NCBI GenBank assembly: GCA_051866635.1
Contig: JBJDXJ010000046.1
Location: forward strand, 31,518 to 95,517
Source of the DNA: Clostridia bacterium
Lineage (GTDB): Bacteria > Bacillota > Clostridia > UMGS1883
Length of the DNA: 64,000 nt
Direction of reading: 5' to 3'
Below are positions 7,134 through 56,954 of the stretch, one piece after another; the stretch's first letter is position 1; each line of letters starts with the position of its first letter. The position numbers and the translations under genes were made by a program. Below the pieces are notes generated by a model. That model made no database searches and was not told where the DNA came from. It saw nothing but the letters and a program-made list of their open reading frames with translations.

Positions 7134-8900
7134 ATGGACATATTCTCAATACTTACACTTGCCGGGGGTCTGGCATTGTTTTTGTACGGTATGGACGTAA
7201 TGACAGACAGTCTGAAAAAGTTAGCAGGCGGTAAGCTTGAGTTGATTCTTTCAAAGCTTACTTCAAACAGGTTCATCGGTTTCCTGCTGGGCTTTTTTGT
7301 AACTGCCGTTATTCAGTCTTCCTCTGCCACAACGGTTATGTTAGTTGGTTTTGTAAACTCAGGTATTATGAAGTTAGGGCAGACTATTTCCGTTATCATG
7401 GGTGCCAACGTAGGTACTACCGTTACATCCTGGCTTTTAAGTTTGTCAGGTATTGGAGGTTCAGGTCCTTTATGGCTTCAGCTTTTAAAGCCTTCTTCAT
7501 TTACACCTGTACTTATCGTAATCGGTGTAATAATGCTTATGACTTGTAAGTCCGACAAAAAGAAAAACATTGCAACTATTTTAGTAGGTTTTTCCGTTCT
7601 TATGTTCGGTATGGAAATGATGAGCGATGCAATGAGCGGTTTAAAGGACAGCGAGGCTTTCCGTAACCTTCTTATCACATTTGAAAATCCCATTCTTGCA
7701 ATTTTAGCCGGTACTTTGCTCACTGCTGTAATTCAGTCATCTTCCGCATCTATCGGTATTTTGCAGGCATTGGCACTTTCCTGTGATATACCCTTTGCTG
7801 TTGCCGTTCCCATTATCTTAGGTCAGAACATAGGCACAACAATTACGCCTATTCTTTCATCAATTACAGGTAATACCGAGTCAAAGCGTGTTGCAACCGC
7901 CTGTCTTTACATAAAGATTTTAGGCGTTGGCATTGTTTACACATTGTTCTGTATCCTTAACGGTATTTTTGATTTTTCCTTTATGTCAGGCAATGCTACC
8001 ATTGCAAGTATCGCTGTTATACACACATCCTTCAACGTTATTTCTTCATTCATTCTTATCTTCTTCTGTAAGCCTATTGAAATGCTTTCAATTAAGACTA
8101 TCAGATCCAGAAAGGTTGAAGAAGTTTCCGAGTTTGGCATTCTGGATGATAGATTTCTTTCTATCCCCTCCTTCGCTGTTGAAAAGTGTCGTGAGATGGT
8201 TTGCGAAATGTCAAACAAAGCAAAGGATGCCGTTATCAATGCAACAAGTTTAATTGAGAATTACGAAAAAGAACGTGTTGAAAAAATTATCGAAAGTGAA
8301 AACCTTATCGACGTTTATGAAGATAAAATCAGCACATATCTTGTTAAAATCGCAAAATCTGACCTTTCTTCAAAAGACAGTAAGACAACAACAGAGCTTC
8401 TTCAATGTATAAGTGATATTGAGCGTATTTCTGACTATGCGGCTATTATTTCCGGAAACATTGATGAAATTAACAGAAACCACTTAAAGTTTTCCGATTC
8501 TGCAATGTTTGAGCTTAAGACTATTGCTTCCGCAGTAACAGAGCTTTTAGGTTATACTCACAATGCACTTTTAAATAATGACCTTGAAGTAGCAAGAGAA
8601 GTTGAACCCTTGAGACAGGTTGTTGACAGGTTAAAGGTTAAGATTAAGACAAATCATGTTGTACGCCTTCAGGAAGGAAAATGTTCCATTGAAATGGGTC
8701 TTATCCTTTCCGACCTTTTGAACAACTATTCCCGTATTGCGGACCACTGTTCAAATGTTGCGGTCTGCCTTTTGGAAAGTGCCCGCGGCAGTATGGAAGC
8801 ACACGGTTATCTTAACACTGTTGTTAACTCCGATGAGGACAAGTTCTTTACAGAAAAGTACAGACATTACAAGGATAAGTATTCAATAACAGCTAACTAA
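7134..8900 (+). CDS. Na/Pi cotransporter family protein with C-terminal PhoU-like domains
   Basis: Duplicated TAVIQSSSA motifs, GANVGTT and GQNIGTT; DIERISDY and RIADHCSNVA PhoU-like repeats. Confidence 0.93.
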   Translation: MDIFSILTLAGGLALFLYGMDVMTDSLKKLAGGKLELILSKLTSNRFIGFLLGFFVTAVIQSSSATTVMLVGFVNSGIMKLGQTISVIMGANVGTTVTSWLLSLSGIGGSGPLWLQLLKPSSFTPVLIVIGVIMLMTCKSDKKKNIATILVGFSVLMFGMEMMSDAMSGLKDSEAFRNLLITFENPILAILAGTLLTAVIQSSSASIGILQALALSCDIPFAVAVPIILGQNIGTTITPILSSITGNTESKRVATACLYIKILGVGIVYTLFCILNGIFDFSFMSGNATIASIAVIHTSFNVISSFILIFFCKPIEMLSIKTIRSRKVEEVSEFGILDDRFLSIPSFAVEKCREMVCEMSNKAKDAVINATSLIENYEKERVEKIIESENLIDVYEDKISTYLVKIAKSDLSSKDSKTTTELLQCISDIERISDYAAIISGNIDEINRNHLKFSDSAMFELKTIASAVTELLGYTHNALLNNDLEVAREVEPLRQVVDRLKVKIKTNHVVRLQEGKCSIEMGLILSDLLNNYSRIADHCSNVAVCLLESARGSMEAHGYLNTVVNSDEDKFFTEKYRHYKDKYSITAN

Positions 8901-25224: not shown

Positions 25225-25261
25225 GATGTTGTCTAAATTATGAACTTTTGGAGGATTGAAA

Positions 25262-27388
25262 ATGAAAGTTATAAAGAGAGATGGCTCTACTGTGGACTTT
25301 GACCGCAGTAAAATAGTTATTGCCATAAAAAAAGCCAACGCCGCTGTTGAAGAATCCAGTCGCATCGCCGAAGACAAAATAGAAGAAATTGTTTCACACA
25401 TTGAAAGTATTCACCGCCAGAGGGTTCTGGTTGAAGATATACAAGATATGGTGGAATCTCATCTTATGGAGGCAGGTAAGTACGATTTGGCAAAAACGTA
25501 CATTATCTACCGCTATAACCGTGCCTTAGTAAGAAAGGCAAACACAACAGACGAATCTATTCTTACATTGATTAAAAACTCAAACAAAGACCTTATGGAG
25601 GAAAATTCAAACAAAAATGCAATTATGGCGGCAACTCAGCGTGACCTTATTGCAGGTGAAGTGTCAAAGGATTTAACAAAGAGGCTCCTTCTTCCCGATC
25701 ATATTTCAAAAGCTCACGAGGAAGGTGCAATCCATTTCCATGACGCCGATTATTTCCTTCAGCCCATATTCAACTGTTGCCTTATAAACATAGGCGATAT
25801 GCTTGACAATGGCACCGTTATGAACGGAAAGCTTATTGAAAGCCCCAAGAGCTTCCAGGTTGCATGTACTATCATGACACAGATTATTGCTTCTGTTGCC
25901 TGCGGTCAGTACGGCGGACAGAGCGTTGATGTATCACACTTAGGCAAGTACCTTCGTAAGAGTAAGGACAAATTCTCTGCCCAGCTTACAAAGGAGTTTG
26001 GCGGTACTCTTTCTCCTGAAATCATTGAAAAGATTGTTGAACAAAGACTTCGTGATGAACTTAAAAGTGGTGTTCAGACAATTCAGTACCAGATAAATAC
26101 CCTTATGACTACAAACGGTCAGTCCCCCTTTGTTACTCTTTTCCTTAACCTTAAGGCAGACGATGAGTACATCGAAGAAAACGCAATGATTATCGAAGAA
26201 ATTCTCCGTCAGAGATATGAGGGTATAAAGAACGAGTGCGGTGTGTATGTAACGCCTGCATTTCCCAAGCTTATTTACGTTTTGGACGAATACAACTGCT
26301 TAAATGGCGGTAAGTACGACTATATTACACGGCTTGCGGTAAAGTGTTCCGCAAAGCGTCTTTACCCCGACTATATTTCCGCAAAGAAGATGCGTGAAAA
26401 CTATGAAAACAATGTATTCTCCCCTATGGGATGCCGTAGTTTCCTTTCTCCCTGGAAGGACGAGGACGGAAATTATAAATTTGAAGGCAGATTTAACCAG
26501 GGCGTTGTTTCACTTAACCTTCCTCAGATTGGTATTCTTGCCAAAGGAGACGAGGACAAATTCTGGGAAATCTTAAACGACAGGTTAAAGCTTTGCTTTG
26601 AAGCACTTATGTGCCGCCATCAGGCATTGGAAGGCACAATTTCCGATACAAGTCCCGTTCACTGGCAGTACGGTGCAATTGCAAGGCTTGAAAAGGGAGA
26701 AACCATTGACAAATACCTTCATGACGGTTATTCAACCATTTCTTTAGGCTATATCGGTCTTTATGAAGTTACAAAGCTTATGAAGGGTACAAGCCATACG
26801 GAGGGTGAAGGCAAGGAATTTGCCTTAAACCTTATGAAACGTCTCCGTGCACAGTGTGAGGAATGGAAAAAGGAAACAGGTATCGGTTTCGGTCTGTACG
26901 GAACACCTGCCGAAAGTCTTTGCTATCGTTTCGCACGCATTGATAAGGAACGCTTCGGTACAATCAAAGATGTTACCGATAAGGGTTATTACACAAATTC
27001 CTACCATGTTGATGTCCGTGAAAATATTGATGCATTTTCCAAGTTTGAATTTGAAAGCCAGTTCCAGAAGATTTCTTCCGGTGGTGCTATAAGCTATATT
27101 GAAATTCCCAACATGCGTCACAACCTTCCCGCACTGGAGGCACTTGTAAAGTTTATTTATGAAAACATCCAGTACGCTGAATTTAACACAAAGAGTGACT
27201 ACTGCCATGTTTGCGGTTATGACGGCGAAATACTTATTAACGATGACCTTGAGTGGGAATGTCCCGCATGCCACAACAAAGACCAGAAGAAGATGAATGT
27301 AACACGCCGCACTTGCGGATATTTGGGTGAAAATTTCTGGAATGTAGGTAAAACAAAAGAAATTAAGTCCCGTGTTCTTCACTTGTAA
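25262..27388 (+). CDS. nrdD: Anaerobic ribonucleoside-triphosphate reductase with ATP cone
   Basis: VIKRDGS ATP cone, FNCCL, MGCRS, YTNSYH, CHVC/CPAC, glycyl-radical motif RTCGYL. Confidence 0.98.
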   Translation: MKVIKRDGSTVDFDRSKIVIAIKKANAAVEESSRIAEDKIEEIVSHIESIHRQRVLVEDIQDMVESHLMEAGKYDLAKTYIIYRYNRALVRKANTTDESILTLIKNSNKDLMEENSNKNAIMAATQRDLIAGEVSKDLTKRLLLPDHISKAHEEGAIHFHDADYFLQPIFNCCLINIGDMLDNGTVMNGKLIESPKSFQVACTIMTQIIASVACGQYGGQSVDVSHLGKYLRKSKDKFSAQLTKEFGGTLSPEIIEKIVEQRLRDELKSGVQTIQYQINTLMTTNGQSPFVTLFLNLKADDEYIEENAMIIEEILRQRYEGIKNECGVYVTPAFPKLIYVLDEYNCLNGGKYDYITRLAVKCSAKRLYPDYISAKKMRENYENNVFSPMGCRSFLSPWKDEDGNYKFEGRFNQGVVSLNLPQIGILAKGDEDKFWEILNDRLKLCFEALMCRHQALEGTISDTSPVHWQYGAIARLEKGETIDKYLHDGYSTISLGYIGLYEVTKLMKGTSHTEGEGKEFALNLMKRLRAQCEEWKKETGIGFGLYGTPAESLCYRFARIDKERFGTIKDVTDKGYYTNSYHVDVRENIDAFSKFEFESQFQKISSGGAISYIEIPNMRHNLPALEALVKFIYENIQYAEFNTKSDYCHVCGYDGEILINDDLEWECPACHNKDQKKMNVTRRTCGYLGENFWNVGKTKEIKSRVLHL

Positions 27389-27425
27389 TTTAATAGAGCT
27401 TACAGGGCGGATTTTATCCGCCTAC

Positions 27426-27655
27426 AGACTGTCGATAAACTTATTTTTATTCAGTCGCAAGGGGTTTGGGGAGTAAGGCTCCCCAAATAAAATAGGAGAC
27501 GGAAATCGCATTTTCGGCTCCGAAAGTGGTGATTTTAGCATGTCTAGACCCCTTGCACGAGAAATTGCCACTTTGTTCCTTAAAATTACAGACCTCAAAG
27601 TGCTGAAGGACGTAGTCCGCCTTTGAGGTCGCGTGTTGACTCTTTTCGACACGCT
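27426..27655 (+). mobile_element. ~230-bp MITE-like structured repeat, copy 1
   Basis: Aligns end to end with 56713-56941; imperfect TIR AGACTGTCGATAAA / TTTTCGACACGCT; flanked by 19-bp direct repeat AGGGCGGATTTTATCCGCC (27404-22, 27656-74). Confidence 0.8.
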
Positions 27656-27696
27656 AGGGCGGATTTTATCCGCCCATGCTTTTAGGAGGGTATGAT

Positions 27697-28281
27697 ATGA
27701 ATTATGCAACAATAAAGAAACATGACATTGCAAACGGTCTCGGGGTACGTGTTTCCCTTTTTGTATCAGGCTGTACTCATCACTGCAAAGGTTGTTTTAA
27801 CCCCGAAACATGGGATTTTAATTATGGAAAGGAATTTACGAAGGCAGTTGAGGCGGAAATCATTGATTCCTTATCTCACGATTACATTTCCGGGCTTTCA
27901 CTTTTGGGCGGTGAACCTTTTGAGCCTGACAACCAGGCAGTTCTGGCACCTTTTCTTACAAAAGTAAAAAAGCTTTTTCCCAATAAGGATATATGGTGCT
28001 ATTCAGGCTACAACTTTGAAACAGATATGCTCACAGGCAAACTTGGAGACAGCTCTGTTACAGATGAAATGCTCAAAAACATTGATATTCTTGTAGACGG
28101 TGAATTTGTGGAAGCATTAAAGGATATATCCCTTCGCTTTAAAGGCTCGTCAAATCAGCGTATTATTGATGTACAGCGTTCATTGGAGGAAGATCATCTC
28201 ATTCTTTGGGATGGGGAAAGTAATATTGACCGCAAGGATGTATCGGGGGAAACTGTCCACTGTCCCTCCTGCGGAGAATAA
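27697..28281 (+). CDS. nrdG: Anaerobic ribonucleotide reductase activating radical SAM enzyme
   Basis: DIANGLGVRVSLFVSGCTHHCKGCFN, LGGEP, LVDGEF, FKGSSNQRII. Confidence 0.96.
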   Translation: MNYATIKKHDIANGLGVRVSLFVSGCTHHCKGCFNPETWDFNYGKEFTKAVEAEIIDSLSHDYISGLSLLGGEPFEPDNQAVLAPFLTKVKKLFPNKDIWCYSGYNFETDMLTGKLGDSSVTDEMLKNIDILVDGEFVEALKDISLRFKGSSNQRIIDVQRSLEEDHLILWDGESNIDRKDVSGETVHCPSCGE

Positions 28282-34155: not shown

Positions 34156-35259
34156 TTAGTAGAACAAGGCGTCTGCAAATTCCTGTGCATTGAATGGTTG
34201 CAAATCGTCAATTCCTTCTCCAACACCTACAAACTTCACGGGTATTCCTAACTTTTCACGTATTGTAATTACAATACCGCCCTTTGCAGTACCGTCCAGC
34301 TTTGTAAGCACTATACCTGTAATCTGTGCCGCATTGTTGAATTCCTCTGCCTGAATGACAGCATTCTGTCCCGTTGTGGCATCAAGAACCAATAAAACTT
34401 CCTTTCTTGCACCGGGAAGCTCACGTTCAATAACCCGGTAAATCTTTTTAAGTTCGTCCATAAGGTTTTTCTTGTTGTGTAATCTTCCTGCCGTATCGCA
34501 GATAAGGACATCTGCACCCTTTTGTCTGGCACTTACACAGCCGTCAAAAATAACTGCCGCAGGGTCTGCTCCCTCCTGCAGGCGGACTATCCTTACATCG
34601 TTTCTCTCTGCCCAAATCTCCAGCTGGTCTGCCGCCGCCGCACGGAAGGTATCTGCCGCCGCAAGTACAACCTCCTTGCCTTCAGCCTTAAGCTTTGATG
34701 CCAATTTGCCGATTGTTGTGGTTTTACCTACACCGTTAACGCCTATAACCAAAATTACAGTGGGCTTTGTGTCAAGCATAAGTTTACAAGAGTCACTTTC
34801 AAGTATTTCTGCAACAATATCACGAAGCTCTTTTTTAACCTCTTCTTCCTCGTGAAGGTGCTTTTCCTTAACTCTTTGGCGAAGTCTTTCAACAATTTCA
34901 ATACTTGTTGTCATACCTATATCGGCTAAAATCAAGGCTTCTTCAAGTTCTTCGTAAAATTCATCGTCAATTTTTTTGAATGATTTAAAAACATCATTAA
35001 CCTTGTCGGAAATTGATTCTCTTGTCTTATCCAAGCCACTGCGGAGACGGGCAAAAAAGCCCTTCTTTTCTTTTGGTTCTTCTTCAATTTCTTCTGCGGT
35101 TTCTTTAATTTCTTCTATAACTTCTTCAATTTTTTCTTCTGCCGCTTCCTTAATTTCTTCTACAGCTTCTTCAATTTCCTCCTCAATTTCTTCTACTGTC
35201 TCCCTGATTTCTTCTACAGCTTCTTGTACTTCTTCTTTCTTTTTCTTCCAAAAAAGCAT
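34156..35259 (-). CDS. ftsY: Signal recognition particle receptor FtsY
   Basis: Acidic N-terminal repeats, GVNGVGKTT, DTFRAAA, DTAGR, TKLDGTAKGG. Confidence 0.97.
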   Translation of the reverse strand: MLFWKKKKEEVQEAVEEIRETVEEIEEEIEEAVEEIKEAAEEKIEEVIEEIKETAEEIEEEPKEKKGFFARLRSGLDKTRESISDKVNDVFKSFKKIDDEFYEELEEALILADIGMTTSIEIVERLRQRVKEKHLHEEEEVKKELRDIVAEILESDSCKLMLDTKPTVILVIGVNGVGKTTTIGKLASKLKAEGKEVVLAAADTFRAAAADQLEIWAERNDVRIVRLQEGADPAAVIFDGCVSARQKGADVLICDTAGRLHNKKNLMDELKKIYRVIERELPGARKEVLLVLDATTGQNAVIQAEEFNNAAQITGIVLTKLDGTAKGGIVITIREKLGIPVKFVGVGEGIDDLQPFNAQEFADALFY

Positions 35260-56664: not shown

Positions 56665-56712
56665 TGATATTTTCTTTACTTAAACAGAAAAAACTGCAAA
56701 AATTGCAGTTAT

Positions 56713-56941
56713 AGGCTGTGTATAAACTTATTCCTCGCACAATCGCGAAGGGGTCGGGAAAGAAGGTTTCCCGAATAAAATCGGTGGGGTTAATCGCATT
56801 CACCCCACCGAAAGTGGCGATTTTAGGGGGTCAAGACCCCTTGCACGAGAAATCGCCACTTTGTACCTCAAAATATACAGACCTCAAAGTGCACAAGGAC
56901 GTAGTCCGCCTTTGAGGTCGCGTGTCTCTTTTAGACACGCT
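56713..56941 (+). mobile_element. ~230-bp MITE-like structured repeat, copy 2
   Basis: Homologous to 27426-27655; ends AGGCTGTGTATAAA / TTTTAGACACGCT; flanked by 13-bp direct repeat AAAAATTGCAGTT (56698-710, 56942-954) from a terminator-like palindrome. Confidence 0.8.
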
Positions 56942-56954
56942 AAAAATTGCAGTT

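Follow-up and report, generated by a model that had tools for sequence, protein, structure and literature searches.

Classical bacterial MITEs have short fixed target duplications (2-9 bp) and interiors that are often IS deletion remnants. REPINs, palindromes of 20-40 nt, are processed in single-stranded form by an HUH (Y1) enzyme and are not known to duplicate their target. The element described here is like the classical MITEs (Correia/NEMIS, ERIC, RUP and MITEAba12) in its terminal inverted repeats, its target duplication, its non-coding sequence and its apparent dependence on a resident IS, and unlike them in that what it duplicates is the target palindrome (12-53 nt) and its interior has no relation to the IS. 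It is like REP/REPIN with RAYT, described in the consulted part of PMC3337134 as intergenic 3' hairpin repeats that are moved in trans and keep their stems by compensatory change, but its partner is a DDE transposase and it has inverted repeats and long duplications. Another short non-autonomous Firmicutes repeat, bcr1 (group A repeats of the Bacillus cereus group), is likewise mobile between strains and shows compensatory changes at the RNA level; in the sections of PMC3184786 consulted it is ~155 bp long, with two stem-loops and fixed 5-bp direct repeats, is transcribed, and is given no named partner. The element here has 232 bp, five to six helices, palindrome-length duplications and an identified partner IS family.

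That partner family contains IS1272 and TnSha1 of staphylococci, which belong to the same transposase family (NF033551), target terminator-like hairpins without a consensus or sequence specificity, and insert just 3' of genes (consulted parts of PMC4923244 and PMC5678879). As far as those parts go, IS1272 and TnSha1 delete or replace the stem-loop without duplicating it, whereas here the whole palindrome is duplicated; one branch of the IS1272 model in PMC5678879 draws a joining at the 5' feet by which the stem-loop would be duplicated. The element here further differs from both in being non-autonomous and in carrying a folded cargo instead of a gene.

Within these sources, structured MITEs that keep their folds by compensatory change (bcr1, PMC3184786) and hairpin-hunting IS1182-family elements are known. 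In the literature searched, neither this element nor any MITE that combines a link to IS1182 with a folded interior is described, and new within that literature are a MITE tied to IS1182, whole-terminator duplication in dozens of insertions, and a five-to-six-helix cargo whose strand-specific fold tracks the propagating lineage. In a 64,000-nt stretch of a Clostridia genome (the window), we describe what is probably a ~232-bp MITE moved in trans by an IS1182-family DDE transposase, duplicating terminators as it goes, with a folded cargo that is kept for propagation.

Copies and boundaries of the element

The window carries two copies of the repeat on the + strand, at ~27425-27656 and 56714-56941. 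Copy 1, the 232-nt MITE at 27425..27656 between nrdD and nrdG, was delimited by BLAST against its own genome, by a 244-bit covariance-model match and by the boundaries of the flank duplication, base 27656 being ambiguous as either the last of the copy or the first of the duplication. Copy 2 was placed by model match and flank comparison, and a 13-nt duplication around it (56698-56710 / 56942-56954) covers part of a terminator hairpin. The aligned copies begin ~30 nt 5' of position 27457, where the preliminary description had the repeat start, and stop just past the last hairpin (H5); the earlier start was too late and overlooked the left ~30 bases, including the terminal repeat.

Invariant alignment columns mark the left terminal inverted repeat and conserved terminus (CAGACTGTCGATAAAC, 27425..27440, + strand). 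With the ends read by eye, the left terminus CAGACTGTCGA agrees at 9/11 positions with the reverse complement of the G-ending right ends, CAGCGTGTCGA, and at 8/11 in copy 1, which ends in A, making the terminal inverted repeats imperfect. Across 91 copies the element reads CA...GCT plus one variable base (C 39, G 19, A 18, T 15).

BLAST of the 2.33-Mb draft genome that holds the window returned 24 matches: 21 near-full copies (80-93% identity), two fragments and one copy that runs off the end of a contig. Element length is mostly 209-254 nt across copies. Variants of at least 300 nt carry ~100 nt of extra structured hairpins, placed within H3 either at its apex or in its internal loop (L120-L122 in G017; L048, L126 and L127 in G024 and G022), with L126 counted among them although incomplete at 254 nt. 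Near-full open frames occur on the - strand in 24/80 copies and on the + strand in 15/80; a small-protein reading was set aside on these few frames and on length differences that are not multiples of 3. The repeat is thus short, non-coding, dispersed in many copies and bounded by terminal inverted repeats. Elsewhere in the window, 34939-35237 holds imperfect 9-12-nt periodic TTC-rich repeats, probably low-complexity acidic or lysine-rich coding sequence on the - strand.

Distribution among genomes

A covariance model built from the alignment of the 21 own-genome copies matched in 10/10 genomes of the genus, with 6-69 matches per genome. BLAST found the element in 0/54 genomes from six other genera of the family, and the model, run on 87 genomes of the order, gave only two weak single matches beyond the genus, both in one sister genus and both with the same termini and H5 and a different interior. 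A progenitor RNA gene outside the genus was accordingly dropped as a candidate. At one sister-genus locus (L146, G059:C39, 1501-1715), a 215-nt element combines this left terminus and H5 with a GC-richer, different interior; the element ends appear to be a platform able to carry different cargos.

When 185,579 species, each represented by one genome, were scanned for an exact pattern, 38 stretches were returned, all within seven metagenome bins; by their titles these are uncultured Oscillospiraceae or Clostridia of the gut of goat, water buffalo and roe deer. Plasmid and phage collections gave no match to the element. Copies lie nearest to copies of their own genome: 21/21 in the window genome (G000), 15/15 in G023, 14/15 in G017 and 9/11 in G020. 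Within-genome nearest-neighbour identity reaches at most 0.93 in the window genome versus 0.98-0.99 in G020, G023 and G017, and by this measure the window genome's copies are the older ones. One of the three high-identity, high-copy genomes (G020) carries the IS described below.

Secondary structure and covariation

All five hairpins of the preliminary description were found in copy 1, on the + strand, and RNAalifold on the 21 own-genome copies gave the same helices (H1-H5) with a small helix at the H3 apex, 61 pairs in total, 16 of them with both-side changes. For a larger alignment, 100 loci chosen for holding a copy yielded 100 model matches in 10 genomes, 91 of them distinct (identical rows counted once). 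In this alignment, both-side changes occur in 5/8 pairs of H1 (27465..27487; 93.2% of cells pair) and in 8/11 pairs of H2 (27495..27521; 94.3%), which has a conserved AATCGCATT tip. H3 (27523..27574) is a long hairpin of two helices with a conserved internal loop, CTTGCACGAGAAAT; these helices (3 and 4) show both-side changes in 4/14 and 6/8 pairs and pair in 97.8% and 97.6% of cells, and the apical one (27536-27554) is degenerate in copy 1. H4 (27591..27630), which encloses a small inner hairpin and is the most variable module of the family, has both-side changes in 9/12 and 3/3 pairs. The palindrome H5 (27631..27654), whose 3' arm is the right terminal inverted repeat and whose right end was aligned to the IS terminus, has them in 5/5.

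Over the 91 distinct copies, 95.9% of cells pair versus 83.6% in shuffles, and both-side changes affect 40/61 pairs in 641 cells, in an alignment that was fitted to the model and so leans towards the structure, and among copies that are kin, so that cell counts overstate independent events. None of 500 shuffles reached any of the five measures used, and pairing fell to only 42-53% in a control with partners slid by 1-3 columns. Even so, many pairs alternate between two or three Watson-Crick types in large numbers, for example CG 48/UA 40 or UA 41/AU 26/GC 20. The compensatory changes proposed earlier therefore recur, clearly above shuffles, in the larger alignment, which supports a conserved secondary structure by covariation.

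Copy 1 folds with z = -7.5, and 0/200 shuffles fold as well; its minimum-energy fold adds a left-end hairpin in a region that aligns poorly across copies. The unpaired motifs (H2 tip, H3 internal loop and helix junctions) are constant across 10 species; for scale, nrdD DNA is 81-85% identical between the window genome and the 8 relatives holding nrdD. Modules H1, H2 and H4 each exist in a small number of distinct forms, combined differently from copy to copy.

A pseudoknot between the segment before H1 and the H3 loop had also been proposed, and of this the complementarity stood and the covariation did not. In the better register 91.7% of cells are complementary, but 442/500 shuffles pair as well and a single cell is changed on both sides. 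In the other register 81.5% of cells pair (54/500 shuffles pair as well); the covariation score is reached by only 2/500 shuffles and the 16 both-side cells by 15/500. This signal is weak, and one pair accounts for most of it. The 3' partner of the pseudoknot doubles as the 3' strand of the H3 apical helix, a competing local helix that covaries (6/8 pairs), and when this shared strand changes the 5' pseudoknot segment does not follow. The pseudoknot looked attractive in copy 1 because the H3 apical helix is degenerate there. A short constant pairing between the two segments may nevertheless exist.

The folded strand

Non-Watson-Crick cells at paired positions were counted as G-U or A-C, the latter being cells that would be G-U on the opposite strand. 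G-U cells number 488 versus 48 A-C cells, so the + strand is the folded one. Counting by position, used to lessen the weight of kinship, shows G-U reaching 5% or more at 18 pair positions and A-C at 1. In 75/80 copies the + strand folds more stably than the - strand, with RNA as well as DNA parameters. The earlier remark that G-U pairs favour the + strand holds by all three counts, and strong covariation together with the 18 versus 1 positions bears out the proposal that selection acts on a single-stranded fold of that strand.

This asymmetry bears on a passive MITE in which the palindromes are fossils and the compensatory look comes from template-switch correction and subfamily recombination, not from selection. 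Template-switch correction of imperfect inverted repeats is a known mutation path in bacteria; the element targets and duplicates palindromes and hence has a way to accumulate them; H1, H2 and H4 exist as a few reshuffled variants; and the copies are kin, so a few double-change events are counted many times. Template switching, however, gives perfect Watson-Crick arms and cannot yield 18 G-U versus 1 A-C positions, and on this 18:1 strand asymmetry a purely mutational origin fails. The constancy of the unpaired H2 tip, H3 internal loop and junctions over species whose nrdD DNA is only 81-85% identical speaks against it as well, as do rare private variants, which are left uncorrected and in 53/80 cases break a pair (see below). 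We regard this passive origin as quite unlikely.

Duplication of target hairpins

Copy 1 is bracketed by two identical copies of a 19-nt target hairpin at 27404..27422, followed by TA and then the element, and at 27656..27674, where it is terminator-like also when read on the + strand (L001; left-flank -23 to -4 equals right-flank 0 to 19). The nrdD-nrdG gap is 13-15 nt long and hairpin-free in 7/8 relatives; in the eighth, one lone hairpin akin to the duplicated one stands there. In this region (window 25256-28281) copy 1 splits nrdD (NRDD and glycine-radical domains) from the activase gene nrdG; the two genes share one ribosome-binding region in 7/8 relatives, and in the window genome nrdG follows two terminator copies and has a new AGGAGG-like site of its own at ~27686-27692.

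Flank duplication was assessed by comparing 80 nt on the left with 80 nt on the right of the 86 copies with both flanks, against a null of 2000 mismatched flank pairs. A direct flank repeat exceeds the 99th percentile in 43/86 copies and the 95th in 47; the other half (43/86) has no significant flank duplication at the former level. The duplicated piece is nearly always a whole terminator-like palindrome with A and T runs, abutting the element and usually 22-35 nt long (range 12-53); it stops two bases before GACTG on the left and begins one base after GCT on the right. The target palindromes are unrelated in sequence. Both target-site duplications and empty sites are thus found for this element.

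Crude ORF calls around the 51 copies with enough flank gave 18 convergent, 31 tandem and 1 divergent setting, and 1 copy without a called 3'-side gene. In tandem settings 13 copies are co-oriented with the genes and 18 opposed, with no orientation bias; relative to the 5' gene overall the count is 31 versus 20. The survey of neighbouring genes suggested in the preliminary description gave this: the 42 ORFs next to the 21 copies are unrelated ordinary genes without a recurrent partner, and 0/42 match a transposase or nuclease family in Pfam.

Several loci depart from the simple arrangement. In L134 (G023:C3:22630-23860), ~1071-1170 reads right end, 7 nt and a new left end, which are head-to-tail copies, and the outward TCGACA and the next GATAAA stand 18 nt apart at this junction, like a weak junction promoter. 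Two solo left-end motifs abut terminator hairpins and lead into non-MITE interiors (window genome contig 29, near 11663 on the + strand and 18807 on the - strand; L055 1164 and 8201-8321); one of them runs into short GC-rich hairpins, one of which also lies, reversed, beside the contig-51 copy. These solo left ends may belong to another repeat family that uses the same terminus. A 7-kb transposon between the inverted contig-29 left ends was considered and rejected, the enclosed genes being ordinary and the motifs solo or degenerate ends. A search for an autonomous copy by way of orphan left ends likewise gave 14 stretches in three genomes, all of them contig-end, internally deleted or truncated copies.

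A probable IS1182-family partner

Since the IS1272 literature describes IS1182-family elements that target hairpins without sequence preference, the genus was searched for that DDE domain. PF13751 was found in 1/10 genomes (G020), in a complete 1576-bp IS (L145, G020:C3:1-2545, ~566-2141) with a perfect 12-bp inverted repeat that starts like the MITE; the first 12 nt of the MITE are this inverted repeat. Its 491-aa transposase scores 415.9 bits against NF033551 IS1182 (cut-off 270), with Pfam DUF772 and DDE_Tnp_1_6, and a duplicated whole hairpin of 29 nt flanks the IS on both sides. An autonomous element with the same ends, a transposase above its family cut-off and insertion into palindromic hairpin targets are thus all present in the genus. 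Read by eye, the left end of the IS carries a terminator-like hairpin and a strong extended -10 promoter; an internal terminator-like hairpin also lies beside each end.

The MITE subfamily of G020 has its first 18 nt in common with the IS, and the remaining matches are chance words of at most 9 nt; because only these 18 terminal nt are common, the interior is foreign cargo. The transposase has relatives in 19/300 sampled genomes of the class, and of 7 related complete IS copies examined in 4 genomes, 6 have a whole palindrome of 24-54 nt duplicated at their flanks. Direct repeats of the IS1182 family in ISfinder range from 0 to 60 bp. The cargo model gave nothing convincing on 24 loci holding related IS copies; derivation of the cargo from such an IS was rejected there, the single 22.5-bit match overlapping an IS end and its duplicated hairpin. 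The window genome assembly has no IS1182-type transposase by tblastn (best E 0.49), these genomes being draft metagenome bins, which may lose IS copies. With the transposase absent from the own assembly and present in 1/10 genus genomes, mobilisation is argued from the shared ends and not seen directly.

The preliminary description had set the repeat apart from a passive MITE. A contrast with MITEs is not supported: terminal inverted repeats, target duplications, empty sites and a terminus shared with an IS1182-family element that duplicates its targets in like manner identify the element as a MITE. The same features weigh on the proposal of a mobile guide RNA or ribozyme, be it an omega-RNA or bridge-RNA left over from IS200/IS605 or IS110 or an RNA that cleaves itself, which the element resembles in outline by its ~200 nt, several hairpins and possible long-range pairing. 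To our knowledge IS200/IS605 and IS110 make no such target duplications. IS200/IS605 PATEs and IS110 are recognised by absence of target duplication and a guide-read, sequence-specific target, neither of which is seen here; the targets are palindromes of unrelated sequence, which a fixed guide cannot specify, and the ends are those of a DDE element with whose sequence the interior shares only chance words. A guide role thus does not fit. Searches of Rfam 15, with the HEARO and self-cleaving classes included, found no family near its gathering score and no known ribozyme or other RNA family matching the element, either with copy 1 (E up to 10) or with 8 diverged copies (E up to 1). Together with the 0/42 neighbouring ORFs of transposase or nuclease type, this makes a guide RNA or ribozyme extremely improbable. 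The sole strong Rfam row was RNase P RNA (RF00010), in a flank: the beginning of a bacterial RNase P RNA gene at L128 398-468, ~50 nt 3' of a MITE copy in G024 and cut by the locus end.

Probable selection on the propagating lineage

Variation was divided by how widely it is shared among copies. Rare variants (present in at most 2 copies) that face the common partner break the pair in 53/80 cases, with 15 G-U versus 13 A-C; shared variation is the opposite, pair-preserving and G-U-rich (488 versus 48 over all cells). Rare variants occur at 0.93 per paired and 1.17 per unpaired column, ~20% fewer in stems, the counts being small. H3 is missing from three copies, each with its own deletion breakpoint, in an alignment of 17 rows that also includes contig-cut and 3'-truncated copies; since the breakpoints differ, none of the three founded a subfamily.

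Orthologous old insertions were sought as a test of decay after insertion, and the pairs that came into question seem to have struck one terminator independently. Where the same orthologous terminator was hit in two species, each copy is closer to paralogues of its own genome, and in 2/5 candidate pairs both copies duplicate their own species' version of the hairpin, so that same-site copies look like independent hits and not like inheritance. As copies also cluster by genome, the family seems to persist by continued copying.

Because private mutations break stems and shared variation keeps them, selection seems to act on the propagating lineage. At this lineage level it would act on source copies, the fold helping the element to multiply or at least marking the copies able to do so; individual inserted copies would decay neutrally, and the fold, kept in copying lineages, most likely serves the element's own propagation.

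These observations set that reading against an RNA useful to the host at each locus, as a 3'-end stabiliser, gene insulator or small regulatory RNA of the kind proposed for bcr1, ERIC and REP. Copies do sit at gene 3' ends (only 1/51 lies between divergent genes), with terminators on both sides, and bcr1 is, in the consulted part of PMC3184786, a transcribed structured MITE with compensatory changes. Yet no orientation preference accompanies a one-stranded fold (13 same versus 18 opposite in tandem; 31 versus 20 relative to the 5' gene), stems are broken by private mutations at roughly the chance rate, same-terminator copies in two species look independently inserted, and copy number runs from 6 to 69 between sister species. 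Orientation and the neutral decay of copies defeat a function for the host at each locus, which we hold to be very unlikely.

Proposed mechanism and role of the fold

In the mechanism we propose, the IS1182-family DDE transposase would mobilise the MITE in trans and would recognise palindromic terminator-like DNA by shape and not by sequence. In a cruciform joining geometry, the element would be joined at the two outer feet of the palindrome, and gap repair would then double the whole hairpin, a duplication by which each neighbouring gene is left with a terminator. MITE and IS have nothing in common but their two termini: on the left the inverted repeat, on the right H5, which carries the other inverted repeat in its 3' arm. 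What lies between, ~190 nt with H1-H4, is cargo of separate origin and keeps a conserved fold of several hairpins on the + strand. This fold would serve the propagation of the element and not a host function at each locus.

Among the possible roles of the fold we favour, tentatively, that it acts as a transcript of the + strand. G-U pairs act as stepping stones between GC and AU, loops and junctions are constant, and insertion itself places a terminator copy just 3' of the element, all of which point to RNA. Against RNA, a terminator copy also lies 5' of many copies, and tandem settings show no orientation bias. Promoter-like sites starting at most 10 nt from the left terminus were found in at most 4/78 copies, with no conserved promoter of the element's own. 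At the other end, 11 promoter-like sites (in at most 11/78 copies) start in the last 20-30 nt, with TCGACA of the right end as -35 and a -10 provided by the flank, and the right end may drive outward transcription at some loci.

Our second choice, on balance unlikely, is that the fold works as single-stranded DNA of the + (top) strand during transposition, either as a priming or assembly site on a displaced copy-out strand or as hairpins that attract the structure-specific transposase to an element that encodes none. DDE transposases of this superfamily are known to act on double-stranded ends, which counts against single-stranded DNA, and strand-specific single-stranded DNA transposons are biased in orientation relative to replication. 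The copies have no such bias relative to tandem genes (13 versus 18), a rough proxy for replication direction. Extruding a cruciform takes both strands, and the - strand would be weakened by A-C mismatches at 18 positions; frequent fixed G-U-type pairs are more typical of RNA. On the other side, H5 holds the right inverted repeat within a hairpin in which 5/5 pairs covary, the ends are unequal (9/11 at best; last base C in 39/91 and G in 19/91) and could make one strand active, the + strand is more stable in 75/80 copies also with DNA parameters, and no promoter was found for an RNA. The transposase family is moreover reported, in the part of PMC4923244 consulted, to recognise DNA secondary structure, which the palindrome duplications fit.

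More doubtful still is that the + strand fold, whether RNA or top-strand DNA, is a cofactor needed or preferred by the shape-reading IS1182-family transposase acting in trans. If so, the non-autonomous passenger of a DDE transposon would compete for the enzyme through a structured nucleic acid, which would explain why only fully folded copies found lineages.

Significance

The 43 MITE and 6 IS insertions with whole-palindrome duplication form a large natural data set on a poorly understood target choice, and they follow a path that one paper drew as a hypothetical branch for IS1272, which IS1272 itself has never been seen to take. That each side of an insertion receives a terminator copy may explain how genomes of 2 Mb carry dozens of copies and show little damage. 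In the cargo, a fold that covaries and is confined to one strand can be seen cleanly, and selection on it apparently acts through the propagating lineage and not through single copies. The old question of why some bacterial MITEs keep an RNA-like structure is now testable with one transposase gene and one 232-bp substrate.
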